Assembly (NCBI GenBank): GCA_008690995.1
Contig: VRMN01000011.1
Span: forward strand, 372,001-436,000
Reading direction: 5' to 3'
Length of the DNA: 64,000 nt
Source: Porphyridium purpureum
Lineage: Eukaryota
The notes beneath the pieces are model-generated. The model did no database searches and had not been told where the DNA came from. It was given only the letters and a program-made list of their open reading frames with translations. Shown here piece by piece: positions 13,680 to 35,064 of the stretch (positions within the stretch are counted from its first letter, which is position 1; the number at the start of each line of letters is the position of its first letter). A program made the translations under genes and the position numbers.

Positions 13680-16600
13680 ATGTGGGCTGTACTGGGCTTC
13701 ATCACGGCGGGATTTCCACGTCCGTGTGTCTATGTAGCGCACCACGAATGGGCGTCCCACTCGACGTCATCGCTCACGCGATCACCCGCGTGTAGACTTG
13801 GCGTAATCCGTTCTGTCCGGACGAGTCGTACGTATGTGTGCCATTTAACAGGAATGGCAGCCACGCGGACAGGGGCAGCGGGAGGCGATGATTTGGATGC
13901 CTTTATGGAAGACGTGGAGCTGAATGAGTTGAATGAAATGCTAGATTCGGTAGTCCAGGCCACAGCTCCCGAATCAGGTAAAAAAGTTGCCGCCTCGTCC
14001 CGGTCAAGGGGCAGGAAGACAGGCCCTGCAACCAGTTCAAAGAGTGATGCGCGCCGGGGAGCGAGTTTAGACTCCTTTTCGCCATTCGATGATGACGATG
14101 ATGAAAGTATGCCCCGAGCTGGCGGCTCCAGCAGTTTCGACGATGCCGCAGGTCTTTTCAGCACAAGGAAGCGGCGTCCGTCCCCAAAGTCTTCAGATTC
14201 CGGCCAGACTCATGGCAGCAGCGGGGTACCCTCGCCGCAAGCAAGGAGCAGTACTGGCAAGAAGAGTGAGCCCTTGCAGACAGAGGACGAAATTCTGGAT
14301 TTTCTGGACAGTTTCATGAACGAAGACGAATCCGCGGTGCCCGTGCCGACCCCGAACGCCCGGAAAATATCTGGTTCTGTGTCTGGCCGTGCTTCCAAAT
14401 GGGATGAAAGCGAGCTTATATCTGATGAAAGCGACAAAACGGGCGCGAAGAGGGTTCCGGGACGACGTTCTCCACGCGTTGCCGATGCTGATCACGATGA
14501 TGATGGCGATGACAACGACGATGACAACGACGACGACGAAGGCTTTGTTGACGCTTCTGCACCTGAAGAAACGCATACCCTTGATGAGTATGAGGATGAA
14601 GACGATGACGACGATGATGATGACGACGACGATGATGAAAGTTCTTTGTTCACAGCGTATGAGCCGGCAAATGAAAAAAGGAAGATACCTCGATATGATG
14701 GTACGTCTTCATTTGACCCTTCGTTGGATCGCAGGAGGTCATCCATCCACCATGAAGGTCGTGACGGTGCTGCCAACGCTGGTGCTCGTAGCGTTCGATT
14801 TGAGAGCCGAGGCCAGAATCGAAGGGGAGGTGCGGAGACAGATCAAGCTCTCCGCGATGTTGTAACTCAAGTGAAGAGTTTGCGGAAAGATGGGGACACA
14901 GAGAGCGCTCTGAGGTTGCTTGAGAATCATTTTAGTGACCAGTTCCCACCGCCTGTGAATTCCCTTACCTCCTTTGCCTTAGTCGAGTGGTTCATGCTTC
15001 TCGCAAAAGGCCCGACGGCAGAAGCCGCTCATAACAAGGCACGTGCGCAGAATCTGTTTGATTGGTGCGCGCCTCTGCCGCTTCTATTGAACTCGTACGC
15101 AGCTGACGCCTTCTTTAAGGCGTTTGGATCACAATTATCAATCACCGAACTTCGCCAAGCGCTCGACAAATATCGGTCAAGTGGCGGGAGCCACTCGCCG
15201 GATCCTCAGGTGTATAATACATGCATGCACCAGATGAGCTTGCAAGGCGATTTTCAGGCCGTAGAAGAGGTCTTCAGCCTTCTCAAGCAGGACGGCAAGA
15301 AGCTGGACGTGTATTCTTTCACGATCATGATTAATGCATGCGCAGAAGCGCATGCCGTAGAAGCGGCGATCATCGCGTACGAGGGCATGAAGGATTACGG
15401 CGTTGTGCCGAACGCAACCACCAAAAACTCGTTCTTGAAAGTCTTCGCGCGTGTCGGTGATGTGGACCGGCTGCGAAATTACTTTGACGAATTGTTTGTG
15501 CCAGAGATGCTTGAACATATGCAAAAAACGGACAAGCTCGAAACAAAGTACGGAATTAACGGGGAAAGTTCCGAAGGTGATGATGAGGCAGACTTGAGCT
15601 TTTTGGATACCGACGATGATGTCGTTGACGAACAGGCTAATGAAAAGGCGTCTGAAGGCGTTCCGGATTCATATGATCAGGATGACAGCCCGGATACTGT
15701 GACGTACGCAATTTTAATCAACGCATTCGCCAAGGAAGGAAATATTTCTGCCGTACTTGAATTTGTGAGGCACTTGGGTGAAGTGGATGCGCATATTTTA
15801 TGCACGGTTTTGAACGGATGTGCTGAAGCGAAGATGGGTGAACTTGCTCTCGAAATTTTTGCCGACATGACCGCGGCGGATGGTGTGTACAAAGTGGTGC
15901 CAAACATCCAATGCTACAATGCTGTGATCAAGGCGCTTTCCAGTTCAAGAATGTTGGCCGAGGCGGTTCACTTCTTCGTCCGAATGCGCCTCGAAGGGCT
16001 CGTGCAGCCGGGTGAGATCACGTTCAACACCCTTGTGAACATGTTTGGGCGCGAAGGCAAGGTGACAAACGCGCTCGAGGTCATGAAGCAGATGAGGAAG
16101 GATCACGTCGATCCATCATTGTACACATACACGTCACTGCTTAACGCATGCGCCGAGTCCAAGCGGCCAGACTTGGCCGATGCCGTGCTGAAAGAAATGA
16201 AGTATTTCGGTGTCGAGCCAGATATTACGTGCTGGAATGCTGCGCTGAAGGCGCGCGCAGTCTGTGGCCACGCGCGTGAAGCACAGGCATTGTTTACCGA
16301 AATAGGCAAGGCCAAGAAGGGTACTGTGAAAAAGAATACGATTACGTATAACACAATGATCTGGCTGCTTGTACAGCGCGCCAACTTCCGGGCCGCCATC
16401 GAAATGTTGGAACGCATGGAAACCGAGGACCCGCCCGTGCACCCAGACGACATCACATTTGCGGTGTTCTTCCAAGCGTTCAACAATGAGCGCAAGGGCT
16501 GGCTTAGCGTAAAAATGTACAAGGAGAGACGTGCTCAGGTGATAGCGACTGCCTCAATGGATTCGTACGCCCCACTGCTACGATCAGTGCTTTTTTCGCG

Positions 16601-16901
16601 TGAGAGAACGCCGGATGACATTGACTTGGTCCTCAAAGATATGCGCACTACGAGGCTCATTTCGGACGACAGGATATACGCCACGCTGTATGACACTTTT
16701 GTGGGCGGCAATGGTGCATTTCGTGAGGGGCTTCAAATCCTGGACCAACTTGCCAAGCGCGATATCCGGCGGCAGAAGGCTGCACGTCGCAAGCGCGGTG
16801 CCGACAGTTTCTTTGTGTATGGGCAGCTTGAGGCTTCTGTTAAGCAGCCAAACGCGTTCTCCGCAACCTCCCGACCACCACGGTCGTCAACGAGGACGTA
16901 G
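13680..16901 (+). CDS. Pentatricopeptide repeat (PPR) protein with a long acidic low-complexity N-terminal region; probably organellar; start uncertain (13680 or 13854)
   Basis: Repeated ~35-aa units: PDPQVYNTCM, LDVYSFTIMINAC, PNIQCYNAVIKAL, PGEITFNTLVNMFGREG, PSLYTYTSLLNAC, PDITCWNAAL, NTITYNTMI. Confidence 0.92.
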   Translation: MWAVLGFITAGFPRPCVYVAHHEWASHSTSSLTRSPACRLGVIRSVRTSRTYVCHLTGMAATRTGAAGGDDLDAFMEDVELNELNEMLDSVVQATAPESGKKVAASSRSRGRKTGPATSSKSDARRGASLDSFSPFDDDDDESMPRAGGSSSFDDAAGLFSTRKRRPSPKSSDSGQTHGSSGVPSPQARSSTGKKSEPLQTEDEILDFLDSFMNEDESAVPVPTPNARKISGSVSGRASKWDESELISDESDKTGAKRVPGRRSPRVADADHDDDGDDNDDDNDDDEGFVDASAPEETHTLDEYEDEDDDDDDDDDDDDESSLFTAYEPANEKRKIPRYDGTSSFDPSLDRRRSSIHHEGRDGAANAGARSVRFESRGQNRRGGAETDQALRDVVTQVKSLRKDGDTESALRLLENHFSDQFPPPVNSLTSFALVEWFMLLAKGPTAEAAHNKARAQNLFDWCAPLPLLLNSYAADAFFKAFGSQLSITELRQALDKYRSSGGSHSPDPQVYNTCMHQMSLQGDFQAVEEVFSLLKQDGKKLDVYSFTIMINACAEAHAVEAAIIAYEGMKDYGVVPNATTKNSFLKVFARVGDVDRLRNYFDELFVPEMLEHMQKTDKLETKYGINGESSEGDDEADLSFLDTDDDVVDEQANEKASEGVPDSYDQDDSPDTVTYAILINAFAKEGNISAVLEFVRHLGEVDAHILCTVLNGCAEAKMGELALEIFADMTAADGVYKVVPNIQCYNAVIKALSSSRMLAEAVHFFVRMRLEGLVQPGEITFNTLVNMFGREGKVTNALEVMKQMRKDHVDPSLYTYTSLLNACAESKRPDLADAVLKEMKYFGVEPDITCWNAALKARAVCGHAREAQALFTEIGKAKKGTVKKNTITYNTMIWLLVQRANFRAAIEMLERMETEDPPVHPDDITFAVFFQAFNNERKGWLSVKMYKERRAQVIATASMDSYAPLLRSVLFSRERTPDDIDLVLKDMRTTRLISDDRIYATLYDTFVGGNGAFREGLQILDQLAKRDIRRQKAARRKRGADSFFVYGQLEASVKQPNAFSATSRPPRSSTRT

Positions 16902-17078
16902 CGGTGCGTCGCCGCCAGAACGAAATCATGATCTCGAGAGGCTTTGTGTACGTAGGGAAGAAAAGAAGAGAAAAATTAAACGGCAGCAAGAGAGTGGTTG
17001 GGGTACTCGGAGTCTGAACGTTATGAAGCTTCGATTCAGTGGCCTCTGAACGTGAATCGCTGCCAATCTGTGCGGGTC

Positions 17079-18143
17079 ATGAGCTGGGCTTGGTCAGTCT
17101 TCCCCGCCGGGGCGCTGTTCCGCGTGGTTGCTCGTGAGCGTGGAGCTGTCCAGGTGTGTGCACGCTCGCATTCTTTGTTTGCGGCTGCTCCACAACTAAT
17201 CGGAAGCATAGATACTTCGAGAAGAACAGGCGCAAGAAGTCGGCGAAGCGCGTCGTGCGCTGCGATTTCCTCGCCGGCAATGTCTGACGGGGAAGCGGTC
17301 GATGCGGATCTTTCTCAAATTCCCGATTGTCATTTCCTGATCTTGGATAAGCCGTACGGCGAGACGTCAGCGGCAGTGGTCGAGACGGCCAAAAGATGTC
17401 TCGGCAACTTGTACAAGGCCAGCCTGCAGACGCGGTACGATGAATACCAAACTACGCATGCCAGCATCGGACAAAAAGGTGGTAAGCGGCTCAAGTATCT
17501 CAAAGTCGGCCATGGCGGGACGCTGGACCCTTTCGCGACAGGCGTTTTGGTTCTTGGTATCGAGGGCGGAACCAAGCTCTTGGATCGTTTTCTGTCGGGC
17601 TCAAAGGCATACGAGTGCACAGCGCACTTTGGCGTGGCTACAAACACACAAGATGTGACCGGGGATAACATCGAGAATCGTCCTTATTCCCACGTGACCA
17701 AGCAGGCCCTGGACGCGATGATCCATGCGCGCTTTTTAGGAGAGATCATGCAAATCCCACCAATGTACTCGGCGCTCAAGGTGAATGGCAAGCGGTTATA
17801 CGAGTATGCACGTGCCAATCTTTCTGTCAAAGTTGATCCGCGGCCAATTCAAATCCTAGCTCTTGAAGTTCTCGAAGTGGATCTCCCTCGCGTGAAATTC
17901 CGGGTCGAGTGCGGAGGCGGCACATATGTGCGGACACTGATTCACGATCTTGCTCACGCAGTCGACTCGTGCGCCCATCTCACGCAGCTTCGACGCACAC
18001 GATGCGGCATGTTTAGTCTTGAGAATGCCATTTCCGCCGACAGAGATTACTTGCGTAGCCTAGGACCTGAGCTCGCGCGTCACCTTACGCATGCTGACGC
18101 AATCATAGCAGGTAGGTCGGGTCCCACTGATGCCACCCAATAG
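17079..18143 (+). CDS. truB: tRNA pseudouridine(55) synthase TruB family, copy 1 (canonical active site)
   Basis: LDKPYG, KVGHGGTLDPFATGVL, KAY, QIPPMYSALKVNGKRLYEYAR, CGGGTYVRTLIHDL and LRRTRCG. Confidence 0.95.
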   Translation: MSWAWSVFPAGALFRVVARERGAVQVCARSHSLFAAAPQLIGSIDTSRRTGARSRRSASCAAISSPAMSDGEAVDADLSQIPDCHFLILDKPYGETSAAVVETAKRCLGNLYKASLQTRYDEYQTTHASIGQKGGKRLKYLKVGHGGTLDPFATGVLVLGIEGGTKLLDRFLSGSKAYECTAHFGVATNTQDVTGDNIENRPYSHVTKQALDAMIHARFLGEIMQIPPMYSALKVNGKRLYEYARANLSVKVDPRPIQILALEVLEVDLPRVKFRVECGGGTYVRTLIHDLAHAVDSCAHLTQLRRTRCGMFSLENAISADRDYLRSLGPELARHLTHADAIIAGRSGPTDATQ

Positions 18144-18604
18144 CATCATTTTCGCCAGATTCCGCCGCCCGTTGCGAGTCACGGCATGCTAAACAGCCAG
18201 AGAGGTCCTGGACAATGTGCACGTCCAATGAAGACTTAACCATGACGCCTGGTGGCCCAGAATCACGGATGCTGGAGCAACTTGCATTTGGACTGCGGCA
18301 CGTTTCCAACTCTGGAGCTGGCACGGGTGAAAGCCTGCGAGCTTGAACTCTAGCAGGAGCAGGACTCGGTCGCATCTCACTATCCTTTGGTGGATGGAGG
18401 GTGACTAGCTCTTGTCTACCTTCAAGCGCTGAATTTCGGAACGTCGAAGGCATCATTTCGCCCGGCTGCAACGGCAGCCTGGACTCGTCTAACTTGCGGC
18501 TGCCCTGGAACATGACAGAGGTAGCGTATACACTTCGCAGTAAAGAATTCGAAGCTTGCGTAAAATGGTAACAGCGCAGCGATTGAGTGCAGAGGAACGA
18601 TACC

Positions 18605-20135
18605 ATGAGACGTTTTGGGGGATCGCAGTGGTCATCTCTCTTGTCCGCGGCGGGACATGCGGCAGGAGCGGCGTCGCGCGCTCGGAGCGGCGCGATATGG
18701 ATGTATTCGCTGCCGACGTGTTTCTTGCGCGAGCATGGATTCCGGCAACAGGGAAAAAAAACAGAGAAGGAGAAAGATGTCCGTGACGGACGTTCGGAAA
18801 AGGCGAAAGGTGACGGATATCAGGTATGATCGCGCGAAGAAAGGGGCGGAGGAAACGGGTTTGACCAAGGTTCCGGAGTGCTTTTTCTTGGTGCTGGATA
18901 AGCCAAGAGGACGGATGGCGCAGATGGTTGTCAACCAGGCAAGGACAAGCTTGGGAAACGTGTATGAAGACGCGCTGATGATGCGGTACCTGGAGTACCA
19001 AGCCAAACACTTGGTACGCGACAAGCGAACCGGCCTTCGAACCAAGGATGGCAAGAAATTGAAAAGCTTGGCAGTGGACTACGCTGCTGGGCGTAGCGGT
19101 TTGGACCCACTTGTGTCGGGCTTACTTCCACTCGCATTCGAAGGCGCCATAAAGCTCCTGCACCAATTCATGGATGGGATGCAGGAGTATGAATGTACGG
19201 CTCAATTCGGGGTAGGCACAGATGTTGATGACCTGGCAGGGAAAATGGTGGGGACGGGTCCGTTCTTGCACGTTACAAAGGAGTTATTGGAATCGGAAAT
19301 CCAGGCAAATTTCTTGGGCGACATTATGCAAGTACCACCTACATATCCAAGCTTCAAAATGCGAAATCAGGTTCTCGTCATGGTTCCCAATAAGAAGGCA
19401 GCCAAAGAGCACGCACAGCCACAGACAGCACACATTGGAGCATTTGAGGTCCTCGAGGTCGATGTCCCTCGCGCGCGCTTCCGCATCGAGTGCTCTCGCG
19501 GTACATATATTCGTGCCCTTATCCGCGACTTGGCGCTCGCAATCGGCTCGCGTGCCACTTGTACATCGGTGAGGCGCACACGCTGTGGCGTGTTCACTCT
19601 CGAACAGTCCATTTCAGGAGATGAGAATCATCTGAAAGCGCTAGGCAATCAGCTGAGCAACCACATCGTCCATGCTAATAGCCTCGTACCTGGCAGCTGG
19701 AATACAGAGAAACATAGGGTGATGTTTCTATCCAAGGCCAAAGAAGGGGCAGAGGCGAAGGACAAAGAGACAGCTCATAAAGAGCATACAGTCCAGGGAA
19801 ATGCAGAATGCGAAAGTGTGTCAAATTCAGAAACACTCGGGCGCAGCCAAGACGAGTTGGGTATCCCATTTGAATGCGCTGACAAAGACGAGACTCTTTC
19901 CAACCGCCAAGGCCCGGAAAAGGGTGACCAGGAACACAAACCTCGCGTAGTAGAGACAGATAACACAGGCTCTCGGGACCTGGAAGGTCATGCAGAATAC
20001 GGGGAGCAAGATATCGACGACTTTACGACGAGTGACGACGATGCCCATGATGGACAGACTTTCAAGGCCGGCTCGACGGGTCCTGCGGAGGAAGAAAAAC
20101 TGCGCGAATTGTGGGGTTTTATTGGTCGAGGTTGA
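18605..20135 (+). CDS. TruB-like paralogue copy 2; leader is out of frame with the body at the A8 run 18754-18761; acidic tail
   Basis: PECFFLVLDKPRG, SGLDPLVSGLLPL, QVPPTY and CSRGTYIRALIRDL. The leader MRRFGGSQWSSLL...WMYSLPTCFLR is in another frame. Confidence 0.85.
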
Positions 20136-20204
20136 TTAGCATTGTACCAAGGGAAGATAAAGCTGAGTATGCCTGCGTGATAAAGAATTGAATGCCTCTA
20201 CGCC

Positions 20205-21290
20205 ATGAAACGGGTCCTTTGGTCGGTGCCCACCTGCCCACGCCCGCTAGGACGCACGATGGACCCGTGGTGTGCACACGGAAGCGCGATGCGGACGGCG
20301 ACCCCGGCGCTCGTATTCGTGAGGGGGAAGAAGACATTGTCCAAGACCAAACACGCCAAGATCGAAACGATGAAGCGGTGGCAGATCAAGGTGGAGAAAT
20401 GGCATACGCGCGCGAAGGAGAAGGCGCGAGTCATGGGCTTGGAGACAGTTCCTGAATGCCATTTCTTAGTCCTGGATAAACCGGCGGGGGAAATTTGCCA
20501 ACCAATGGTGAACGTAGCCAAGAAGTTGCTTAGACTTGCGTACGGCGCCGCGATGGACATGCGATACTGCGCCTTCCAAAAGTATCGCGTCCAGGAAACG
20601 AAGCAAGAAATTGTCCTGCCCAAGGAAGGAAAGGTGTTGAGAACGCTGCCCCTTGACTATGGCACAACACTTGAAAGGTACGCGTCAGGCCTCATTGTGA
20701 TTGGTATTGAGAAGGGCGTGAAGCTTTTAGGGCAGTTTTTGGACGGTCCACACGTGTACGAATGCACGGCACAGTTTGGTACCGCGACCGACACGCTTCA
20801 CTTACAAGGCAAAGTGATTGAGGAGAGCTCGTACACCCATATTACCAAGGAATTCATGGAGGAGATGATGGAGACTTGCTTCACGGGAGACATCATGCAA
20901 GCACCACCGATAGCAAGCGGAGTTGTCTACCAGGCGATACCAGTGCAGGTTCACGCCTTCAAAGTGATTGAGTACGACTTGCCGCGCGTGCGCTTCCATG
21001 TCCGTTGTAGCGAACGCACACATGTCAGCAAGCTTGTCCACGATCTTGCTCACGCACTGAACTCAAGCGCGCATCTCACTGAGTTGAGGCGCTCACAATG
21101 TGGCTTGTTCAGCCTTGATGGCTCTATTTCTGGTGATCGAAAGTATCTGAATAGCCTGGAACCTAAACAATTGGAGAGCCACTTGAAGCATGCAAACGAC
21201 GTGAAACCTGGTAGCTGGCCTTTTGCTCCTCAGCGCGCGCGAAGGAAAGCAATACCGCGGGTCTCGCCGGCGGTCATAAGAACTGAGTGA
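20205..21290 (+). CDS. TruB-like paralogue copy 3; catalytic Asp replaced by Glu and thumb loop deleted
   Basis: PECHFLVLDKPAG, YGTTLERYASGLIV, CSERTHVSKLVHDL and LRRSQCG. Confidence 0.88.
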   Translation: MKRVLWSVPTCPRPLGRTMDPWCAHGSAMRTATPALVFVRGKKTLSKTKHAKIETMKRWQIKVEKWHTRAKEKARVMGLETVPECHFLVLDKPAGEICQPMVNVAKKLLRLAYGAAMDMRYCAFQKYRVQETKQEIVLPKEGKVLRTLPLDYGTTLERYASGLIVIGIEKGVKLLGQFLDGPHVYECTAQFGTATDTLHLQGKVIEESSYTHITKEFMEEMMETCFTGDIMQAPPIASGVVYQAIPVQVHAFKVIEYDLPRVRFHVRCSERTHVSKLVHDLAHALNSSAHLTELRRSQCGLFSLDGSISGDRKYLNSLEPKQLESHLKHANDVKPGSWPFAPQRARRKAIPRVSPAVIRTE

Positions 21291-21869
21291 GAATGGCCAC
21301 CAGTGGACAAACAGCTGCCGAAGTTTTGATGGCGGAAAGGAAAGCGTAGTATTTCGAGAACCAAGCATCAAGATGAATCGTGCTGTGATTTCAATTTGGC
21401 GAGGTCGAGTACACCGCACAGAACGCCGATGCCAATTCTGGACACACGCGAGCATTTGTATCTGCTGTCCGCTGTGTTCGCTATCACTTTACCGGTGATG
21501 CGTGTCAATTCACCGCTGGCTTGCATTCGAATGGGTGCACAGCGCTTGGCCATCCATGCACAATTATCTACTCAGCTGTCAAGGTTAACCTGCCTGTCTT
21601 GCTTTCAGCCAATGCCGGACGCGGAGACATGGACATCAAGTGATCCGGAGAGTCAATAAAGACAGATTTAAAGGCGGTCGCTCCCTCCGCATGCTGCACC
21701 AGAGCATCGTCGATATGCAGGTGTGGTGACACCCTCTGTGGCAGCCGCCGCGAAAGTGACCGTCAATGCCCTCGCGATCTTTACCGTCGATTGTTTATGA
21801 CTAAGAATTTGCGAAACCAGGCTATTGACGGTCGGCGGTTGGTGACGCAACATTGAGTTGGGCGCAATC

Positions 21870-23171
21870 ATGAAGGGCCTGCCTTCTTGGCCTTTGTTTG
21901 CGCCAGTGCGGCCGCGCGCTACGAGTCCCGTTAGCGCCGAGGTGTCATCCGTATGGTCGTGTTTTCTGCCGCGCGTATTCTCGCGAGGGAGACGCGTCGC
22001 CCACAAGCGCTTGTGGAGGCAAAAAAAGGCGGAGGAGAAAAGAAGAATATTGGATTATGATAAGGCGCGTCGATTGGCGGGGCAGGAGGCACTGCAAACT
22101 GGATTCGAATTCGTTCCGGACTGTCACTTCCTCGTTATCGATAAACCACAGGGCCTCTCGAGTTATACACAAGCAGGGCACATCAAGAAGAGTATGACCA
22201 AAGTATTTGAGTCGATGCTGAAGATGCGCTTCTACGCGTTCCACCAGAGGTATCAAGGAAAGAATGGGAAGTTGCTGAGTCTTAGAATGGGCAAGACTCT
22301 GAAGAAGATCAAAGTTACAGGTTTGGAAACCTTGGATTCTTTCGCGACTGGTGTCTACCCAATAGTCGTGGAGGACGCAATTCGAGTTGCCAAGCATTTC
22401 AAAGACGGTACGAGAGAGTACGAGTGCACGGTTTGCTTTGGAAGCGGTACAGACAATCAGTTTAGTTCCGGGAAGACAGTGGAGGAACGCGAATTTTCCC
22501 ATGTGACAGTGGATGCAATGAAAGAGATGATCAAACAGCGCTTCATTGGCGAGCTCATGCAAGTGCCGCCAATGTACTCTACCGTAAAGTTCGAAGGCAG
22601 ACCGCTGCATGATTACGCAGAGCGAGGAAGAAAGGTAGACATTGAGCCCCTGCCGGTCCATGTGTATGCTTTTGAAGTTCGCAGATTCGAACTTCCTCAC
22701 GTGCGTTTTCACGTCCAATGCGACCCGAAAACATTCATTCGATCACTTGTATGTGACCTTGCGCATGCGCTGGACTCGTGTTGCCATGTTTCGGCACTGA
22801 GGCGCACGCGATGTGGTGTTTTTAGAATCGAGGACGCCGTATACGGGTCACCAGAGAGCTTGGTCGCTCTTGGACCAAAGATAGGCAAGCACCTGATCCA
22901 TGCAAATCAGCTCATTCCTGGGATATGGAAGCAGCCTGACGAATCCAGTCAACCATCGAATACCGAAGGGACATCCGTAAGCGATGGTGAAATGAAGGGT
23001 CAGAACGATGAAGATCACGACGAGCAGCGTGATGAACAGACATCCGAGGAGTATGAAGAGATGACGGATGAAGACGATGAAGACAATGGAGACGATGAGT
23101 ACGACGAAGAGAGCGCAGACAGCGATGATAATACGCTAGATGAAGAGTTCAGATCACGACATGGCTATTGA
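21870..23171 (+). CDS. TruB-like paralogue copy 4 with acidic tail
   Basis: PDCHFLVIDKPQG, LETLDSFATGV, QVPPMYSTVKFEGRPL, TFIRSLVCDL and LRRTRCG. Confidence 0.9.
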   Translation: MKGLPSWPLFAPVRPRATSPVSAEVSSVWSCFLPRVFSRGRRVAHKRLWRQKKAEEKRRILDYDKARRLAGQEALQTGFEFVPDCHFLVIDKPQGLSSYTQAGHIKKSMTKVFESMLKMRFYAFHQRYQGKNGKLLSLRMGKTLKKIKVTGLETLDSFATGVYPIVVEDAIRVAKHFKDGTREYECTVCFGSGTDNQFSSGKTVEEREFSHVTVDAMKEMIKQRFIGELMQVPPMYSTVKFEGRPLHDYAERGRKVDIEPLPVHVYAFEVRRFELPHVRFHVQCDPKTFIRSLVCDLAHALDSCCHVSALRRTRCGVFRIEDAVYGSPESLVALGPKIGKHLIHANQLIPGIWKQPDESSQPSNTEGTSVSDGEMKGQNDEDHDEQRDEQTSEEYEEMTDEDDEDNGDDEYDEESADSDDNTLDEEFRSRHGY

Positions 23172-23788
23172 TCTTGCTGTACGCAAACACGGTATCATGT
23201 GTTCAAGCCTTCCTCACGCCCAAGATTGTCGTTTCTTTCTCATACTGCGTAATGTCTCGGTTCATGATGTTGAAGGAACAGATAGCAGGCTGTTTTCTGA
23301 ACGACAAAGATGAAAAACAAACCTGAGATGGGAGGGTAATCAGGGATTGCGGTTTTGGGTCCGTCTTGTCCAAGAAGCAAGGCAGCAGATTTTGTTTCAT
23401 GATCACTATCGTCCGCCGGCGCTGTTGAGCACGTTCGGGCCAACTCGAGCTCGGATCATTGTGAGATTAGGACGCGTGGACCCATGTCTCCTTGCGCACA
23501 CGCTCTTTCTTGAACTCAGATTACAAACGGCGTAAATATTGGGTCTTACAGATCGGACAAGGCAGCAGTGAAAAGTTGCGTATCCTTCACGTCTCAGTCA
23601 TTACGGCACGATCCATCACTTTCTCGCAAGCTGTAACCCGCACCTTCTAGAGTCATGGTGAAATGCGTCTTTTCGATAGTCCACGGAAACTTTCGTTTGT
23701 TTGCGTCGCTGACGAATGCGTGGGCGAGGAGTACCATAGCACAGGACGTTATGTTGAGTGCCATATACCTTAACTTCGACCTTTTAGC

Positions 23789-25459
23789 TCACCACCAAAC
23801 AGTTGTGTCCGGCTGGTGCTTTGGTTGTGATTTGGGAGGCTTGTACTCCGGTTCGGGACCATCCTCGTCGTCAGAGTCTGTTCTCTGGTCATTGTCGTAA
23901 TGAACATCATCAGAAGCATGGTGATCATCACTATCTTCGTCATCCGTCAGGTCGCTATCCACGTCTGCTGAACGATCACTATCGTCATCAAGAATGTCCT
24001 CAGCTTCGCCCACGTCGCTTGACGATGTGCTGCGCCTGCGGCTAGCCCTTGGCGTCTTATCAACATCATTTCTACTGCCAATTTCTTCTTCGTCCTTCTC
24101 TCCTTCGTCCTTTTCTTCTTCGTCCTTCTGTTCTTCGTCTTGCTCGGCTTCTGAGATGCTTCCGCCCAGCTCCTCCGTGTCGCTAGCCTGGTCCGTCTGG
24201 TGCAATTTTTGTCGCGCGTGCATGTATTGCCGCGCATACTGCACCTCTGGATCCACCTCCGAATTTTCGGGCTCTTCGGAAAATACTGGAACAAAGGGCT
24301 TGGGCTTTCGAGGCTGTGGACTGACAACGCCCGGGATCAGGCTATTTGCATGTCTCGCGTGATTGTGAATATCGGTCCTCAATTTTTTCAACGCTTGCTT
24401 GCTTCCCGAAATGGCGTCCTCCACTTTGAAAGGTCCGATCCTTGTTCGCCTCAAACCAGCAACGCTCGCGCACGAGCCGAGCGCATGTCCCAGATCGTGA
24501 ATGAGCGATCGAATGAAGGTGTGCCTACAGCACTCCACATGAAAAGACGCATACGGAGGCTCAAATTTGATAATTTTGAAGGACATCACCGTCACGGGTC
24601 GTGGCTCAACCTTCATGTCAGATGCCGTCTTTCCTGTTCGTGCATATCTCCACATCGGCTTCCCGAATAGTTTGACTTCAGAAAAAATCGGAGGTACTTG
24701 CATAATATTACCGGTAAACTGCTCCTTAATGATGTCGTCTATTGCCTCTTTCCTGATTTGACGATAGTCGCTTTCTTCGACCACTCGCCCAGTCTGATAG
24801 TGCGTGTTTGTACCCTTTCCGAATAAGGCTACGCACTCATACTCCCGAGTGCCGCCTTCAAAATCTTGAAACTTTTTGACCAGCGCGGTGGCATCTTCAA
24901 GGGCAAAAGCAACAACACCTGACGCGTATGCATCGAGTCCTTCCAGCTGCATACTCTTGATCTTCTTCAGATTCTTCATGTTTTGAAGAGCAAGCTTCTT
25001 TCCCTTGAGCCAAGAGCGCCCTGGTTTCTTCGCATAACCAACCATCCAGTCATACGCGGCGTTGTAATAGCGATTCATTAGCGCCGGACGCAACGCGACT
25101 TTGAGTTTCTTCTCAATATCCTCGCTGAGATTGCTACACATCATGCCTTGCGGCTTGTCGATGATTAAAAAATGGCAGTCGGGCACTCTCACGTCGAGAC
25201 CTTCGTCGTGTATTTTGCCCCAGAGCATCTTGCGCTCTTTTCCAATGAGTTTCATCTGTGTGTTATGCTCGTTCCTCATCTTGATCAGCTCGCGATGGGA
25301 GAATCTTCTGGGACCTCCTCCCTTCGCTCGTGAGAACACTGCAGACACGCCATACCGCCACGCCGCCAACGCCGCGCCGCGCTCGCAGCTCTCATCGCGT
25401 GCCCGTATCGGTGCAAGCAAACGCCAGTTTACTGCTCTCATGATCACTGCCGACGACAT
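23789..25459 (-). CDS. TruB-like paralogue copy 5 with long acidic tail
   Basis: PDCHFLIIDKPQG, LEGLDAYASGV, QVPPIFSEVKLFGKP, TFIRSLIHDL and LRRTRIGPF. Confidence 0.9.
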   Translation of the reverse strand: MSSAVIMRAVNWRLLAPIRARDESCERGAALAAWRYGVSAVFSRAKGGGPRRFSHRELIKMRNEHNTQMKLIGKERKMLWGKIHDEGLDVRVPDCHFLIIDKPQGMMCSNLSEDIEKKLKVALRPALMNRYYNAAYDWMVGYAKKPGRSWLKGKKLALQNMKNLKKIKSMQLEGLDAYASGVVAFALEDATALVKKFQDFEGGTREYECVALFGKGTNTHYQTGRVVEESDYRQIRKEAIDDIIKEQFTGNIMQVPPIFSEVKLFGKPMWRYARTGKTASDMKVEPRPVTVMSFKIIKFEPPYASFHVECCRHTFIRSLIHDLGHALGSCASVAGLRRTRIGPFKVEDAISGSKQALKKLRTDIHNHARHANSLIPGVVSPQPRKPKPFVPVFSEEPENSEVDPEVQYARQYMHARQKLHQTDQASDTEELGGSISEAEQDEEQKDEEEKDEGEKDEEEIGSRNDVDKTPRASRRRSTSSSDVGEAEDILDDDSDRSADVDSDLTDDEDSDDHHASDDVHYDNDQRTDSDDEDGPEPEYKPPKSQPKHQPDTTVWW

Positions 25460-25977
25460 CTTCGCACGGTCCTTCGAGCTTCAGCCATCATCCGGGTCGG
25501 ATCGTCAGCTGGAATGGATGCGCTGCGTCGGGAGGGAAGTAGGACAGACGGCAAAAACAGGACAACAGCTCCCGAACATGGAAGCCAGTCGCTCCAGCCA
25601 GCTCGCTTGGGTGTTCTTTATCCTACGTAACAGTGCAGAGAAGCGCTTCTGGCTGTGCATGCAACGTGCATGGCTCGTTGTTGCGTGTTTTGCTGTATCT
25701 CAGGGCCGCTCACCTACGATTTCGACTTCACTGCGGATTTCGCAGAGAGATAGTGTGAGTCCGTCATGTTTATGATTCGCTCGCGCGCCCCAGATTGCCC
25801 TGCGGTCCGCAGATGCGTCGTATCGGCAAGCGTAGCACTCGGAAGAAAGAAAACCTTCGAACACTAAAAGTCAAAGGCCCTTTTGTCATATCTTGGCTTT
25901 TCTGGACGTTCTGCAAGAATACTTAACATCCAAGCTGCGAGCACATCATCAGGACCGGGTGAAAGTGCCGACACTCG

Positions 25978-27099
25978 TCACCTTTTGTTGATGTGGAAGG
26001 TGACTTCAGGGTTTTCAGAGTTCTCGAGGAAGATCCGCTTGGCATGCTTGAGTTTGTTGAGAACGTAGGGACCCATTGCCTCCAGCGAATCTCGGTCGCC
26101 AGGAATGGCATCCTCGATTTTGAACCAGCCGCGCCGAGTACGCTTCATTTCGGTAAGATGCGCGGCCGACTTGAGCATATCGGCAAGATCAGGAACAAAA
26201 GTCCTGACGAAATGTCCCTTATCAACCACGACACGGAAACGCACGCGAGGAGGCTCAAACTCAATCACCTTGAACTCGTGAACAACATCTCGCTGTGCGC
26301 CAGGGGAAATATCTTTTCCTTCACGTTTCCATTTGTACATTGGTTTCCCGTTGTGTCTCCACGCAGAGTCAGTCGGAGGAAACCACATCACCCTGCCATT
26401 AAATCTGCCGTTGATCATCTTCTCTATTGCTTCGACTGTCACGTGTGAAAACGTCTTCTCCATAATCACCTCACCAGTCGAATACTGGTTACTGGTTGCA
26501 CTACCAAATAAAGCTGTTAGCTCGTATTCTTTCGTGCCTCTGATAAACTCGTGCACAGTGCTTATGACCTGTGTCGCACCTTCGACAGCAAGAACCGTAA
26601 TCCCCGTCTGAAACTTGTCCAGCGTCATCACGTTTCCGGCACTTTCGATCCTCGCGGACTTCAGATGCTTCAAGGTTCTCGCATCTTGCAGAATCTTCTT
26701 CCGGGTTGATGGCTTCCGAAACTTTGGCAGCGTTTTGAGCAGGTGCTTGTAGTACCGCACTTCTAGCGCCGGCGCCAGCCAGGTTCGAAGCGCTCTCACA
26801 CCATTTGCGATACAGTCCTGGTTCGTGATCCCCATTGGCTTGTTCAGGAGCAGAAAATGACATTCAGGAACTTCTTCAACCCCTTTTTCCTTCGCTTCAG
26901 CCAGCGCCTTCTTGCGGAGCTTATCCAGTTTCTCATGCTGCTTTTCCAAGTGCGGTCGCCGCTTTTGGAACTCCGGATCCACCTTCCAACTTTTCAATCC
27001 GCGCGACAGGATGCGCGGCACCGCGCAGGGCCACATCACGCTCGGCAGCTTCCCAGCGTTCGCCAATGGCTGAAAAAACGAGCCACATGTTCGTGCCAT
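25978..27099 (-). CDS. TruB-like paralogue copy 6 (strongly diverged)
   Basis: PECHFLLLNKPMG, VMTLDKFQTGI, KEY, FPPTDSAWRHNGKPMY, HFVRTFVPDL and MKRTRRGWF. Confidence 0.88.
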   Translation of the reverse strand: MARTCGSFFQPLANAGKLPSVMWPCAVPRILSRGLKSWKVDPEFQKRRPHLEKQHEKLDKLRKKALAEAKEKGVEEVPECHFLLLNKPMGITNQDCIANGVRALRTWLAPALEVRYYKHLLKTLPKFRKPSTRKKILQDARTLKHLKSARIESAGNVMTLDKFQTGITVLAVEGATQVISTVHEFIRGTKEYELTALFGSATSNQYSTGEVIMEKTFSHVTVEAIEKMINGRFNGRVMWFPPTDSAWRHNGKPMYKWKREGKDISPGAQRDVVHEFKVIEFEPPRVRFRVVVDKGHFVRTFVPDLADMLKSAAHLTEMKRTRRGWFKIEDAIPGDRDSLEAMGPYVLNKLKHAKRIFLENSENPEVTFHINKR

Positions 27100-27422
27100 T
27101 ACAGGCCGCCCGCGGCGCGCTTAACTTGTCCGTCTTTCAGTTTTTCACGTTCCCTGACGCTCGTCTCTTCGGCATGGCCAGAAGTAAGCGAAAGGAGCGG
27201 TGGGCACTCATGCGAAGACACCGACGGCTGCCGGGATGCGTTCCAGACTTGAGCAAAACCAAGTGATTGCGCAAGCGCTCGATTCACGCATCCGTGTGGT
27301 ACTCTGACGGGCGCGCGGGAGGGTGAAGCACTGGTTGGCGTTGTAGCGCTGCGATAAATGTGTGGCAAGGCATCGTGATCTGACCCGTTTGCCGCCCTTC
27401 GAAGATCTTGAGTTGGCTCTGT

Positions 27423-28916
27423 ATGGCCATGAAGGGGTTATCTTGGTCGGTATTTGCGCCCTTGGTGGCACGCGTCAAAATGTCCGAACGCGTAGGCGTC
27501 CGGAGCTTGTGGCCAAGTTCGCTTCCTACAGTTTTTTCGCGCACAAAGAAGTCAAAGTCCAAGCCGATGACCAAGTCAAAGTTTAAGATGATCAAGAAGC
27601 GGAGCGTTGCGTTCTTGAAAGTTATCGACAGCGAAAGGAAAATCCTTGAGAAGAGAGCCAAGACCAGCGGGCTAGTTCTGGAAGTTCCAGACTGCCACTT
27701 CCTCGTCGTCGACAAGCCGCACGGTATGCTAGCCGGAACACTTACTGAGGAGGTCGAGAGAGGGTTAAGGATCACCATGGCCGCGGCAGTGAATTTTCGA
27801 TATCTCAATGCACGGTATGAGTATGAGAAATTTAATTGGTGGAAGCTCGGTCACGAAAATACAAAGAGAAGAAAGATCACGCTGCAGCATATGAGGGGCC
27901 TCAGGCGAGTCCGATTTATGCAGCTCAGAGGACTGGACTCGTTTACATCAGGTGTAGTGCCGTTCGCCCTTGAGGGCGCTATCGAGCTTATGGACCAGTT
28001 TGAGATCGGTACGAGAGAGTTCGAGTTCACGGCCGAGTTTGGAAAAGCGACGGACTCTTTTTACAGTTCTGGCCAGGTTACTGCCGAAAAGGACTTTGAA
28101 CACATTACAGAAGAAATGGTAGATCAGGTCGTCAGGGACCAGTTTATTGGCGAGCTCCATCAAGTTCCTCCAATGTTCTCAAACGTGAAGCTAAATCGCA
28201 GACCTCTTTGGCTATACGCGCGGAAAGGAAAGACCGCTGCAGAATTGGGAGTTAAAGCACGCCCCATAGAAGTGTTTTCTCTCAAAGTGCTCAAGTTCGA
28301 GCTCCCGCGGATTTGGTTTCACATAGAATGTTGCAGGTCCACATACGTGCAAGTGCTGGTGAACGATCTAGGTCTCGCGCTCGGGTCATACGCGAATGTT
28401 ACCAAACTCAGACGCACTCGTACCGGACCCTTTCATGTCTCGGACGCTATTGCTGGTGACAAGCGGACGCTGCGTAAACTACGCCCAGACATCGGCAGCT
28501 ACTGCAAGCACGCAAATAGCGTCATCCCAGGCAGTTATATCCCACCAGCTCCTGTGGTCGAGGTTAAGAAGAAAAAGCCCAAGATTCGGATAGTCGTGCC
28601 AGACCGGCAGTACGAGCGCCGGTACTTCTATTTGAAGCCGCAGGGCGATGATGATGCTCAGAAGTCGGCATTCATCGATGATCACGAGTTTGCGCCGAAG
28701 AATGCACAGGACTCGAGCACTGACACGCTCGACGCGGATGGCGAAGATGCAACAGTGGAGGAAGAATACGAGCCTGAGCTCGATTCTGAGTCCGATGCCG
28801 AGTCTGAGTCCGAGCTCCACGACGAGCACGATCGGGTCAAAGAGACACCACAGTTCGTAGATGAGGAAGTGCAAATATCCAGGCAGCAGGAAGGAGAGAG
28901 AGGATCCAACGATTAA
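27423..28916 (+). CDS. TruB-like paralogue copy 7 with acidic tail
   Basis: PDCHFLVVDKPHG, LRGLDSFTSGV, QVPPMFSNVKLNRRPL, STYVQVLVNDL and LRRTRTGPF. Confidence 0.9.
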   Translation: MAMKGLSWSVFAPLVARVKMSERVGVRSLWPSSLPTVFSRTKKSKSKPMTKSKFKMIKKRSVAFLKVIDSERKILEKRAKTSGLVLEVPDCHFLVVDKPHGMLAGTLTEEVERGLRITMAAAVNFRYLNARYEYEKFNWWKLGHENTKRRKITLQHMRGLRRVRFMQLRGLDSFTSGVVPFALEGAIELMDQFEIGTREFEFTAEFGKATDSFYSSGQVTAEKDFEHITEEMVDQVVRDQFIGELHQVPPMFSNVKLNRRPLWLYARKGKTAAELGVKARPIEVFSLKVLKFELPRIWFHIECCRSTYVQVLVNDLGLALGSYANVTKLRRTRTGPFHVSDAIAGDKRTLRKLRPDIGSYCKHANSVIPGSYIPPAPVVEVKKKKPKIRIVVPDRQYERRYFYLKPQGDDDAQKSAFIDDHEFAPKNAQDSSTDTLDADGEDATVEEEYEPELDSESDAESESELHDEHDRVKETPQFVDEEVQISRQQEGERGSND

Positions 28917-29213
28917 AGTCTAGAGCCGCTCGTGCCTGCTTGTCTTTGTCTTTGGAAATGTTCCGGTCTCCGCAAAGCCTTTGAGATTGCTAGTCTTTGC
29001 CAAGTGCAATCACGCATGCGCGCACGACCACGGATGTCACCGAGCTGTAGGAGGCCTGTTTTCCCTCGCGACAGCCTCTGGGGCAAAGCGTCGGGTTGCG
29101 CCTGACTCCGAAGTTTAACGCGGTGAAACCGATGACGGGCGGCGCTTGGTGGGGAACCGGAGTGACGGATCGACGCGTTCGTTTCAAAGTGCAAAGCGAC
29201 GGAGACTGGAAGT

Positions 29214-31388
29214 ATGGATATGTACGGCTTGCACAGCACCGAAGAGCAAGCGGACGAACGCCGGCAAGAGCGCAACGAGTATGACAATGGCACGACGAGT
29301 ATTGCACAAAACGGCGGTGCCCAGGCGCACGGGACGGACGTTTTAGATCAGGAGCGGATGGATGATCAAGGATCTACGCCTGCGCCCGTTCATACCGGCA
29401 CATACTTGATTGATGCGATTAGGGAGCAGCTGGACATCGTTTGTTTCAGACCGGGTGGGCTCGAGCTTTTTGCGTCCGGGGCCGTTGTTGATCGGTCGAG
29501 TCTCTTGCACGCATTGGGCCCTTCCGTTTCGCTCGGCGCGGCTCACGCTGCTATCAAGGAGCGTATCAGTGAGCTACGGGCGCTGATGAACTATGTACAA
29601 GGCTTGCATGGGGCGAGCGAGGGTCGCGCGGATGTGCAGCAAAAGTACAATCGGGTCACGCGGATGCGGAAAGACCTTGCGAAGCAAAAGACGTTTCTCG
29701 TTGACGTCTCGAAAACGCTCAAGGGCGCGATCTCAAAGTGCCGCAAAGCGAGCACCAGTAAGGCTGGCGCCAAGTGGCAGAGGTTGGTGAATGGTCTCAA
29801 GGCGAGCGCTGAGAGCGCCAAGTGCGATATGATGGAGTACAGCAATTCAGACCATGAAATTGTGTACAATCTATTCGGAAAGAATTTCATCACAGACGTG
29901 TCCATCTCCAAGCCGTCAGGTGTATGCACAGCGTCATTTCGCGAGCTGCATGGAAGCGAGGAAATCATGGACGCCGTGCTCGACGCAGATCTGAAGATTT
30001 TGATTGAGACCTCTCAATTTGACAAACTGGGCACGGAATTGTCGCGCGTTGTGACGATTGAGTCACTTGAGGATCGCTTTGCCGGTAGTGATGGTGACGA
30101 TGGGACAGCCGAGGAAAGCGCTAAGCAGACACCAGCATCCTTTCCCGTGCGGTTTGCGCTCCGGGCGCTGATCGAAGACATTTTGATTATGTGCGATGCC
30201 GAAGAAGCTATGCTGTTGGGCAAGAAATCGAACTCTACGTGCGAGCGTCTATTCTTTGGGCACGGGCTCGTGCGGAAAGTGCTGTATGGGTTGAGGCTGC
30301 AGTACTTTGGCTCGGCGCTAGCTCATCTCGAGTTGCTTCCCGGCGGGCAGAAAAGGGAGCATCGACAAGACATCCTACTGCCGACGAAGTACGAGCCGTA
30401 CGAGTTGGTTGTCACTGTGCAGCAATCAACTCACCAGGGTAATATCCTTTTGCGAGGCTCGTGCCTACCCGCTCGGGACGCTGAACCCCCGACCGCAAGC
30501 GTGGATGAGACCAAATTACAATTACCGCTTGACTTCCAGTTCGGCATTTCGAGCTGTGCAAGCGCTGCGGATAACGAGAAGGGCGAGGTCGCTTTGGAGT
30601 ACGTATTGCTTTTGGAGCCACGCATTGCTGTAACGCTCGGTATCGCTCAAAAGCTTGAGGGCTTTGGACCCGGAACGGCGCCACACGCACTGAATGATAC
30701 GTTGAAAAACCCCTCCGTGCTCGCGGAGCGCTCGCATGTGACGCTACTTGACTTGCTGACGGAGTCACCGCCTCGCACGGAAGACGAGAAACACCAGTCA
30801 AGCCTAAACACCTATAGTGCCACCATCGCGCGGCCACAAGCAACAGAGCGCTTCCGTTTCTTCCAGCTTCGCGACAGTTTGTGCCCTGGGGTGCTGGTTT
30901 CACGCGTACCATTTTCCCACCCTGCGCAGCTAGCGCCGATTTTGCGGCTTTTGCGGCAGCAGCTGTTGTTCAACGAATTGTACCTCTCCTGCAGTTTGCT
31001 GCGCATCGGAGACGAGCTCAGCAAAGTTCCGTGGGTCGGCACAGATGGCGAGTTCTGCTCGCGAATAGGAGACTGCTCGATGGACAAGGTACTCTCGGTG
31101 GAAATTTGCGTGTTCCAAGCGCCCGAAGTGCTCGAGGCCACACTTCAGTCCGTGCGCTCGGGAGAGGAGCACGTCATTTCTCTAAGTGTGTATGTGGGCT
31201 TGAATGGCATGCTGACCGCGAAGTCAAGAACCCACAAACTGGTGCGAGAGCACCGAGCTCCTTGTGGGTTTCTTGAGACAAGTGTCGACGTTGAGTCTGG
31301 CGTGTCGGATGAGACAGTCACGACTTTACTAGTTTCGTGCCGAAGTATCCCGCTTGTACTTCATCATATTCTTGTGAACGCGCGATAG
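29214..31388 (+). CDS. MED1: Mediator of RNA polymerase II transcription subunit 1-like protein
   Basis: GVLVSRVPFSHPAQLAPILRLLRQQLLFNELYLSC resembles the conserved C-terminal Med1-domain motif; also YVLLLEPRIAV. Confidence 0.65.
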   Translation: MDMYGLHSTEEQADERRQERNEYDNGTTSIAQNGGAQAHGTDVLDQERMDDQGSTPAPVHTGTYLIDAIREQLDIVCFRPGGLELFASGAVVDRSSLLHALGPSVSLGAAHAAIKERISELRALMNYVQGLHGASEGRADVQQKYNRVTRMRKDLAKQKTFLVDVSKTLKGAISKCRKASTSKAGAKWQRLVNGLKASAESAKCDMMEYSNSDHEIVYNLFGKNFITDVSISKPSGVCTASFRELHGSEEIMDAVLDADLKILIETSQFDKLGTELSRVVTIESLEDRFAGSDGDDGTAEESAKQTPASFPVRFALRALIEDILIMCDAEEAMLLGKKSNSTCERLFFGHGLVRKVLYGLRLQYFGSALAHLELLPGGQKREHRQDILLPTKYEPYELVVTVQQSTHQGNILLRGSCLPARDAEPPTASVDETKLQLPLDFQFGISSCASAADNEKGEVALEYVLLLEPRIAVTLGIAQKLEGFGPGTAPHALNDTLKNPSVLAERSHVTLLDLLTESPPRTEDEKHQSSLNTYSATIARPQATERFRFFQLRDSLCPGVLVSRVPFSHPAQLAPILRLLRQQLLFNELYLSCSLLRIGDELSKVPWVGTDGEFCSRIGDCSMDKVLSVEICVFQAPEVLEATLQSVRSGEEHVISLSVYVGLNGMLTAKSRTHKLVREHRAPCGFLETSVDVESGVSDETVTTLLVSCRSIPLVLHHILVNAR

Positions 31389-31467: not shown

Positions 31468-32601
31468 TTACTTGAGCGCCATCAGTTTTTCAAGTACCAT
31501 GTCATCTGTCGAGAAATCATTCTTCAGCTTGCCCGCTTTTTGCTTGTGGACGAAGTCGTTTGAGTACGAGTCCTTCAGTCCCGCCTGAATATTGTACTCA
31601 ACGGTCCAGTCGAGGTCGCTCAGCGCGTTTCGCGGACTGGTGAAAAAGTGCACGGGGCGACATGGGAAAGCCTTCTTTTTGCCAAAGTCGAACTCCTTCG
31701 GGTTGTAGTGCACGATTTCGACTGCATCCGGATCTAAGCCCATAGCCGTTGCACATGCCTTCACCATGCCGTCGAATGTGATGGCTTGCTCGTCTTGAAT
31801 GTTGTAGACTTTGCCGATCGCTTTGGGATTGCCCAGGCACGCGCTCATGGCCTTTGCCAGATCCATTACGTGCCCCAGGCCAGTCAAGTGTTGTCCGTGG
31901 CCTGGAACCGGAACCGGGCGCCCCGCCGCAAGACGTTCAAAGAACCACTGCTCCAGTGGGTTGTAATTGAGCGCACCATAAATATACGTCGGTCGGATGG
32001 CCGTGTAAGGCATGCCGGACTGTTTGAGGAACGTTTCCGTGTCGAGCTTGCCTTTGTGTCGGCTTTTCAAGTCCACGGCGTCCGTTTCCAAGTGCGGCAT
32101 GATATCAGACTTAGCATACACTCCTGCGGACGACATGTAAATGTACTGCTCAATTTTGCCGTTGAATAGGTCAATCAACGGTTTCGAATCCGCCAACTCG
32201 CGCCCGTTATTGTCGAAAATTGCGTCGAAAGTCTCTCCCTTCAAGAGCTCGGTCATCTGCGCCGCGTCCGTACGATCGCCCACAATCACCGACGTGTTCT
32301 TGTTGCGCGCTTCGAACTGCGCTTGCGTCTCGCCCGGTACCATCAACGACTTGTCACCTACGGGCTTACTCCCCCGATTAAACAGCACCACTTCATGCCC
32401 GGCGTCCGCCAACACCTTGGTCAGATACAAACCACTGAACCTCGTTCCGCCAATCACCAGCACGCGTTTCTTATCTCCTGCAGCCATCATCACAACCTGT
32501 GGTCGACGCTGCGTGCTGATCCCTCGCGCAGGTGCTCTTCCCGCAGGACTCGTAACGCGTGGGGCATGGCCACCAACAGACCCAACAAACGCCGCCACCA
32601 T
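31468..32601 (-). CDS. CSP41B: Chloroplast stem-loop binding protein 41b (NAD-dependent epimerase/dehydratase fold)
   Basis: GGTRFSG, DNNGRE, SSAGVY, SRHKGKL, RPTYIYGALNYNPLEQWFF and YNPKEFDFGKKKAFP; transit peptide. Confidence 0.9.
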   Translation of the reverse strand: MVAAFVGSVGGHAPRVTSPAGRAPARGISTQRRPQVVMMAAGDKKRVLVIGGTRFSGLYLTKVLADAGHEVVLFNRGSKPVGDKSLMVPGETQAQFEARNKNTSVIVGDRTDAAQMTELLKGETFDAIFDNNGRELADSKPLIDLFNGKIEQYIYMSSAGVYAKSDIMPHLETDAVDLKSRHKGKLDTETFLKQSGMPYTAIRPTYIYGALNYNPLEQWFFERLAAGRPVPVPGHGQHLTGLGHVMDLAKAMSACLGNPKAIGKVYNIQDEQAITFDGMVKACATAMGLDPDAVEIVHYNPKEFDFGKKKAFPCRPVHFFTSPRNALSDLDWTVEYNIQAGLKDSYSNDFVHKQKAGKLKNDFSTDDMVLEKLMALK

Positions 32602-34344: not shown

Positions 34345-35064
34345 TTTCGAATCCCTCTTTGTTGGGCTGCGGGTTCGTGCACAGAGTTGGGAGCCACGGT
34401 GGTACAACACGACAACCTCAAGACTCAGCTCCGCAACCTTGTGCTCCTTTCCAAGACCGGCACAATCCTGCCCCATCTGCGGACGCGGCCTTGCGACCTG
34501 AATAAATACCTCCAATCCACCGAGCAGTCTTCAATCAGATTCGGGAATAAAACCAACAGCGGCCAAGTTGTCACCCATCACTCTATCCCATTGAATTCAG
34601 TGGCGCTTATGATGCGGTCCAACCTACTCCGTGGATCGATAGGGGAAACGGCGTTGCGTTTCCAAACCATGCGTCGCCTGTTCCAGTGAGTGCTTCCGGC
34701 GTGTCGACACGAAAACACATGGAGTCTTCTTCTCTGGAATCATGATCCAACCTTCGTCCAAAACCATTGATGTGAGTATTTAAGTAGAAGAAGAATGACG
34801 GAAGCAGAGACAGATGCCGTCTCTCGGTACATACGTGTGTGACGCTCTGGATAAGAGCACCTTCTGTGTTCTGCTATTCACCTGCAGTGATGTCGTGGAC
34901 CAAATGGTGCGATAAATTCGGGCATCCACGACAGAGGGCGCCCTAAATTCATACAAAAGCCAACGAGAAAGGTCCGAGCTCAACACGCATGGCTCACAAA
35001 TGAATTTGGACAGACATTCGCGAGCACGAAACAGACCATGCTTCTCATATTTGACACCTACATA

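Follow-up and report, generated by a model that had tools for sequence, protein, structure and literature searches.

Divergent relatives of a TruB pseudouridine synthase in a tandem array of Porphyridium purpureum are probably organellar RNA-binding proteins

We analyzed a 64,000-nucleotide window of the genome of Porphyridium purpureum, a red alga (contig VRMN01000011.1 of assembly GCA_008690995.1, positions 372,001 to 436,000 of the forward strand; the coordinates below are those of the window). At 17079-28916, it contains a tandem array of seven genes for proteins of the TruB family of pseudouridine synthases. The first of these, copy 1, has the features of a standard tRNA-modifying enzyme. 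The other six, along with five relatives that are dispersed in the genome, have lost residues that are nearly invariant in the rest of the family and have gained features that the canonical proteins lack. Judging from their sequences, most of these 11 divergent proteins are probably non-catalytic RNA-binding proteins of the organelles. A non-catalytic, RNA-binding role fits most of the members better than an RNA-modifying role does. We also suggest, more tentatively, that the six derivatives in the array may help organellar group II introns to fold or splice.

The array and its relatives

The array consists of seven long open reading frames (360-560 codons), in the orientation + + + + - - + and with 69-617 bp between genes, as in the original prediction, which was made from the DNA letters. 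All seven proteins match TruB_N from Pfam with 76-171 bits, as compared to a cut-off of 27.3 bits. They have the TruB_N plus TruB_C_2 architecture of TRUB1/Pus4-type enzymes, with no Pfam match to a PUA-type domain in the array proteins. The top match in PDB by sequence is human TRUB1 (8JFX). A structural model of copy 7 has the TruB fold (mean predicted local distance difference test score, or pLDDT, of 88), and its best Foldseek matches are 8JFX (9e-21) and 1K8W, although the input alignment was heavy in TruB rows, which biases the model toward this fold.

The seven proteins are just 32-44% identical to each other. At the DNA level, the copies have only short coding motifs in common, with a similarity of 60-83% at most, so the duplications that formed the array are old, and recent duplication is ruled out. 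Separately, 41 bases of copy 3 (21039-21079) also match, at 95% identity or more, the stretch of one contig that represents copy 1; they could be a conserved motif or the trace of an old gene conversion.

To find other members of the family, we compared a profile of the seven cores to 1.84 billion representative sequences. Among the best 150 of 25,580 matches, the seven copies were followed by six proteins with scores of 207-327 bits; ordinary TruB proteins scored 202 bits or below. Five of the six are from P. purpureum and are encoded on three other scaffolds (KAA8494070.1, KAA8499676.1, KAA8500026.1, KAA8494809.1, and KAA8494811.1). All five also pass the gathering score for TruB_N. The sixth is the canonical protein of Timspurckia oligopyrenoides (taxon 708627). 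P. purpureum has at least 12 members of the family, which is a minimum from protein searches: relatives of over 50% identity sit under one representative, and highly diverged members could rank below the best 150. Most species have just one or a few TRUB1/Pus4-type genes, as compared to 12 here. The original prediction concerned the tandem array. The local array stands, but there are these five additional, degenerate members elsewhere. The dispersed proteins, which are predicted to be inactive, are labeled as tRNA pseudouridine synthases in the database. Two of them (KAA8494809.1 and KAA8494811.1, or P0150 and P0152) are sisters in the tree, have near-consecutive accessions, and lie on the same scaffold, which suggests a second small cluster.

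Other searches did not extend the family. A word-index search for orthologues of the divergent copies, which recovered 10 of 14 known members, found only proteins from the window, other P. purpureum proteins, and ordinary TruB proteins. In metagenome contigs, none of 155 pattern matches was confirmed as a family member.

Phylogenetic analysis indicates that the expansion is local and specific to this lineage, as had been predicted. In a quick tree of 96 rows, the seven copies and the canonical protein P0002 form one group (99 by the Shimodaira-Hasegawa-like approximate likelihood ratio test, or SH-aLRT). In a more careful tree of 36 rows, the 11 divergent proteins form a clade (support of 97/88) that is sister to copy 1 and P0002 (97/87). 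The Timspurckia orthologue lies outside of these (99/98), and all three groups are apart from the 22 other TruB rows (99/94). Copies 2 and 3 branch first; copies 4, 5, and 7 group together; and the five dispersed proteins are weakly grouped (81/82). This branching order suggests that the array was the birthplace of the family. The branches of the divergent copies are long, with 0.5-1.3 changes per site, and this may draw the 11 proteins together. The tree is unrooted, and the Porphyridiales clade falls between bacterial-like and eukaryotic-like groups of TruB proteins. We also considered whether the divergent copies belong to TRUB2 or to other ancient subfamilies. The trees speak against this, as every divergent copy groups with copy 1 (SH-aLRT 99; 99/98) and shares the P[DE]CHFL signature found there (neither Raa2 nor TRUB2 was knowingly placed among the tree rows).

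Residues lost and segments gained

We compared the functional residues of these proteins, using the numbering of E. coli TruB as taken from an alignment to 1R3F. H43, D48, Y76, D90, G177, Y179, and R181 are each 99-100% conserved in 269 other TruB matches. TRUB1/Pus4 enzymes such as human TRUB1 are the best match to the array in both sequence and fold, and copy 1 has every catalytic and tRNA-binding residue that we tested. Copy 1 is also 60% identical to P0002, and we infer that it is the parent of the family.

The 11 divergent proteins are quite different. None of them retains H43, and G177 is present in 2, Y179 in 3, R181 in 7, and Y76 in 8. A firm D48, which is the catalytic aspartate, is found in 5 of the 11, so that six lack it, and a firm D90 is found in just 1 (the raw counts are 6 and 2, including one each, in P0148 and P0152, from a shifted alignment, which we discounted). 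In contrast, the structural residues K19, L47, G53, G83, and G93, as well as several Phe, Gly, and Pro, are present in all 11. The motif GHxGxLD, with both H43 and D48, is found within the array only in copy 1 and in none of the 11 divergent proteins. The set of D48, Y76, D90, Y179, and R181 is complete in copies 1 and 2 but in none of the other 10. The protein comparison gave the same motif II sequences that had been read from the DNA for copies 2-7, with the canonical GHGGTLDP only in copy 1. The further claim that six active sites are remodeled was partly right. His43, Asp90 (except in copy 2), and Gly177 or thumb residues are consistently lost, but the catalytic Asp is present in five of the six (copies 2, 4, 5, 6, and 7) and is replaced by Glu in copy 3.

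In E. coli TruB, R181K slows catalysis by 2500-fold and D90E or D90N by 30-50-fold, with tRNA binding unharmed, and D90 touches C56 in the T arm of the tRNA (PMC3973310). From their residues, copy 2 may have retained catalysis, while copy 3, copy 7, and the five dispersed proteins are predicted to be dead or nearly so.

The divergent proteins have also gained features. Directly ahead of the core, all 11 have a segment that is rich in Lys, Arg, and Glu, which none of three canonical proteins has: the fraction of K+R+E+Q in this segment is 0.37-0.63 in the divergent proteins versus 0.13-0.26 in the canonical ones. In the model of copy 7, this segment is an ordered helix (block pLDDT of 79-95). 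The model of copy 1, which is based on a shallower alignment, has no ordered element in the corresponding place; its N-terminus is presequence-like, and residues 1-74 are low confidence and free of helices. Acidic tails, with a net charge of -12 to -37, are found in 7 of the 11. Finally, in 10 of the 11 the first 40-50 residues resemble a presequence and include few acidic ones; the exception is P0150, whose gene model lacks such an N-terminus. Gains that occur in all 11 proteins point to a new function held in common, and not to the decay of each protein by itself. Taken with the retention of the fold and the loss of tRNA recognition and catalysis, the basic helix and the presequence point to RNA-binding pseudoenzymes.

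Expression, selection, and gene models

All seven copies are transcribed. In two stranded runs from one study, sense-strand RNA covers every copy, and the strand of the reads switches over copies 5 and 6, which argues against DNA contamination. The depth, averaged within each 500-base bin, was about 4-51 for the array copies, as compared to 49-72 for the upstream PPR gene and 4-13 for the downstream Med1-like gene. No splice joints were found in four RNA runs that were mapped to 15501-30500. Copies 4 and 5 are convergent, and their transcripts overlap: reads from both strands cover the gap between them as well as the end of copy 5 (23001-24500). Many of the single-nucleotide polymorphisms (SNPs) listed fall in this gap.

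The prediction that the intact frames reflect selection was borne out. Among the SNPs listed (40 of 89 and 40 of 77 rows), copies 2-7 have 30 distinct SNPs, of which 16 are synonymous and 14 are non-synonymous. The ratio of non-synonymous to synonymous polymorphism per site (pN/pS) is 0.25, rising to 0.34 if transitions are given a fourfold bias (p of 0.0002-0.003), and is not near 1. Copies 2-7 are under purifying selection. (Copy 3 has just one SNP among those listed.) Within the cores, 7 of 15 listed SNPs are non-synonymous, and 5 of these 7 are in copy 2 and come from one run. The multi-base coding indels at 23066 and 28780 are both in frame. One base is inserted in an A run of copy 4 (22020) in 5 of the 21 reads from run X24 and in none of the 14 from the other run; this is either slippage or a minor frameshift allele.

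Several gene models in the database seem to be truncated. Near 18754, an A run is one base longer in the window than in all five contig runs that cover it (X7, X10, X1, X4, and X16; X9 begins at 18755), and the shorter A run appears in 2 of 7 and 4 of 7 raw reads. The extra A is likely an assembly error. Once it is removed, copy 2 can be read in frame from the ATG at 18605, and its N-terminus then resembles those of the other copies, so this ATG is the likely start. Because of the extra A, the database model of copy 2 (452 amino acids, from 18777) loses the presequence. More broadly, the models of copies 1, 2, 3, and 5 (287, 452, 333, and 488 amino acids) begin at internal ATGs and lose their presequence-like N-termini. 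Initiation at the second ATG of copy 1, at 17280, could yield a genuine form of the protein for the cytosol or nucleus.

Table 1. Genes of the array and its neighborhood, with window coordinates
Feature	Position	Strand	Description
Copy 1	17079..18143	+	Canonical TRUB1/Pus4-type pseudouridine-55 synthase; TruB_N 171 bits
Copy 2	18605..20135	+	D48, Y76, D90, Y179, R181 present; H43 and thumb consensus lost; acidic tail
Copy 3	20205..21290	+	D48E, D90H, Y179H, R181S; about 20 thumb residues deleted
Copy 4	21870..23171	+	D48, Y76, R181 present; D90F, G177K; acidic tail, net -29
Copy 5	23789..25459	-	D48, Y76, R181 present; D90Y, G177H; acidic tail, net -37; sister is copy 7
Copy 6	25978..27099	-	D48, Y76, R181 present; D90Y; motif II carries an insertion of 6 residues; basic core, net +16
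Copy 7	27423..28916	+	D48 present; Y76F, D90Y, R181Q; N-terminal helix in model (residues 49-80)
PPR-protein gene	13680..16901	+	Pfam PPR_2 3e-50; ends 177 bp before copy 1; acidic N-terminal region
Med1-like gene	downstream of array		
Epimerase-fold gene	31471-32601		
TALE-class (Homeobox_KN) homeobox gene	33424-34476	-	Adjacent to the next
TALE-class (Homeobox_KN) homeobox gene	35068-35943	-	Adjacent to the previous
DEAD-box helicase gene	36877-38964	-	
DHH/CBS-domain gene	39610-41217	-	Presequence-like N-terminus

Possible roles of the divergent proteins

According to the tree, one TRUB1/Pus4-type gene duplicated within the Porphyridiales to give the derived clade, which then multiplied in place and onto three other scaffolds. 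The sequences show that this clade lost H43 and mostly D90 and G177, with later members also losing the catalytic Asp; that the structural residues were retained; and that the Lys/Arg/Glu-rich segment and often the acidic tail were gained. The N-terminal presequences would carry the proteins into an organelle. There, the TruB cleft might hold an RNA stem-loop but leave it unmodified, the added helix might broaden the contact with RNA or with a partner, and each paralogue might serve separate introns, much as Raa2 acts on intron 2 of psaA. That the divergent copies act in an organelle is suggested by their N-terminal sequences and by precedent.

Raa2 (or Maa2) of Chlamydomonas is a TruB-like protein that is required for the splicing of psaA-i2 and binds domains I-III of the intron (PMC7912774), and it has been listed with splicing factors that no longer need or have enzyme activity (PMC13172542). 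Like the divergent proteins, it has a TruB-like fold, and it acts on organellar intron RNA without catalysis. However, it is one factor for one plastid intron instead of a family of 11, and we liken it to the family by description. Given the descent of the family from the copy 1 lineage, the resemblance seems to point to convergence. Other precedents are mt-LAF3 of Trypanosoma brucei, which uses a pseudouridine-synthase fold as a mitochondrial RNA scaffold, and the module of human TRUB2, but these belong to the RluA family or to an older subfamily and are not reported as species-level expansions. The PPR and OPR families of green plants and algae were also enlarged to provide gene-specific factors for organellar RNAs, with a helical repeat in place of an enzyme fold.

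The organelles of P. purpureum contain many introns. The mitogenomes have 46 introns but only 14 intron-encoded proteins, as compared to 9 introns in P. aerugineum, and the plastid has 43 introns, with 42 group II introns reported (PMC8742464). The same source reports no nuclear homologue of the mitochondrial intron-encoded proteins, and degenerate intron proteins are on record from the plastid (PMC4476101). So many introns without maturases would give a reason for so many paralogues. It is a rather doubtful further step to suppose that P. purpureum met a recent explosion of mitochondrial introns with a panel of 11 intron-specific splicing factors. If it did, then the family would be to red algae what the PPR and CRM splicing factors are to plants, with an enzyme as its origin, and the array would preserve the steps from enzyme to pseudoenzyme.

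Several observations weigh against a family of non-catalytic splicing factors. The plastome of Timspurckia is reported to be highly intron-rich, and Erythrolobus coxiae has 34 mitochondrial introns (PMC8995046), yet Timspurckia yielded only the canonical copy among the best 150 of 25,580 matches, so intron load does not demand this TruB family. In the tree, copy 1 and P0002 part only after the first duplication, and an alternative that joins copy 1 to the 11 is kept by the approximately unbiased test (p of 0.085). The SNP figures come from part of the rows. Copies 2, 4, 5, and 6 hold D48, Y76, and R181 jointly, which a purely non-catalytic role would not need. Lastly, targeting is ambiguous. 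Lys or Arg is found within the first 10 residues in 8 of the 10 N-termini, and 7 of the 10 have basic residues after an [FL][SV]R[GAT] motif, a pattern that we take to be mitochondrial; the early basic residue is missing in 5 of 6 plastid-like controls from the window. But an aromatic residue (Phe, Trp, or Tyr) comes early in all 10, which is compatible with the plastid, as such a residue is described as a mark of plastid import in red algae (PMC7038456, PMC12531127). A mitochondrion-like control also has a Trp, at position 7. By hydrophobic moment, the N-termini could not be separated from either kind of window control (labels inferred), and a query of the ESM Atlas with the N-terminus of copy 4 gave no match at 0.9 or above. 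We infer a slight preference for the mitochondrion as the destination, with the plastid a good deal less likely and targeting to both less likely again.

We also considered whether the divergent proteins might be organellar ribosome assembly factors or subunits, or general RNA scaffolds, which would bind rRNA or mRNA without catalysis. This seems somewhat unlikely, although mt-LAF3 helps to assemble the mitoribosome and can do without its catalytic Asp (bioRxiv 10.1101/2023.02.23.529727), and the gene lists for the P. purpureum mitogenomes include no ribosomal-protein genes (PMC8742464). Basic N-terminal helices would suit contact with rRNA, and the PPR proteins of a red-algal species are reported to number fewer than 10 (PMC13126933), which leaves room for other gene-specific factors. 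However, P. aerugineum has also lost nearly all of its ribosomal-protein genes (PMC8742464), and it has no divergent copy among the best 150 of 25,580 matches (whether its proteome was included was not checked). Furthermore, eleven fast-diverging paralogues in one species suit many targets better than one ribosome.

If copies 2, 4, 5, and 6 instead are active pseudouridine synthases that were re-targeted to sites in organellar rRNA, mRNA, or introns, then their joint retention of D48, Y76, and R181 (and of D90 and Y179 in copy 2) would be explained. We consider this improbable, as D90 is firm in just one of the 11, and copies 3 and 7 and the five dispersed proteins lack D48 or R181 (P0148 is ambiguous at D48) yet have the same gained features. 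A role as chaperones of tRNA, or as carriers for its import into the mitochondrion, is quite improbable: the lost residues are those linked to the T arm of tRNA, namely D90, through its contact with C56, and H43, which we take to be tied to the T arm. TruB is reported to fold tRNA independently of catalysis (PMC11301382), and the P. purpureum mitogenome has only 13 tRNA genes (PMC8742464), but P. aerugineum has only 9 and no divergent copy among the best 150 of 25,580 matches. As for redundant duplicates that drift to loss without any new function, the long branches, the insertion in the A run of copy 4, and the non-synonymous SNPs in the cores are what drift might leave. It is nevertheless very improbable and is already contradicted by frames that stay open at 32-44% identity, by the low pN/pS and the in-frame indels, and by gains that are common to all 11 proteins.

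Among the neighbors of the array (Table 1), the epimerase-fold gene is presumably CSP41-like.

Single pseudouridine-synthase genes that turned into organellar RNA factors were known before; what appears to be new is the expansion to 11, with the founding tandem array. The array was thought to be undescribed, and we found no description of it in the titles and abstract openings of the open-access literature (supplements were outside the scope of the search). Nor did we find, in the literature searched, any description of a host splicing factor for the maturase-less introns of red-algal organelles. For the splicing of dozens of such introns in red algae, the family supplies 11 concrete candidate factors, and the species is one that laboratories grow. 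P. purpureum can also be transformed. Whatever their targets, these proteins form an informative graded series, from the intact copy 1, through the possibly active copy 2, to copy 3 and the five dispersed proteins, which are predicted to be dead. This series should be of use for studying how an RNA-modifying enzyme becomes an RNA-binding factor.

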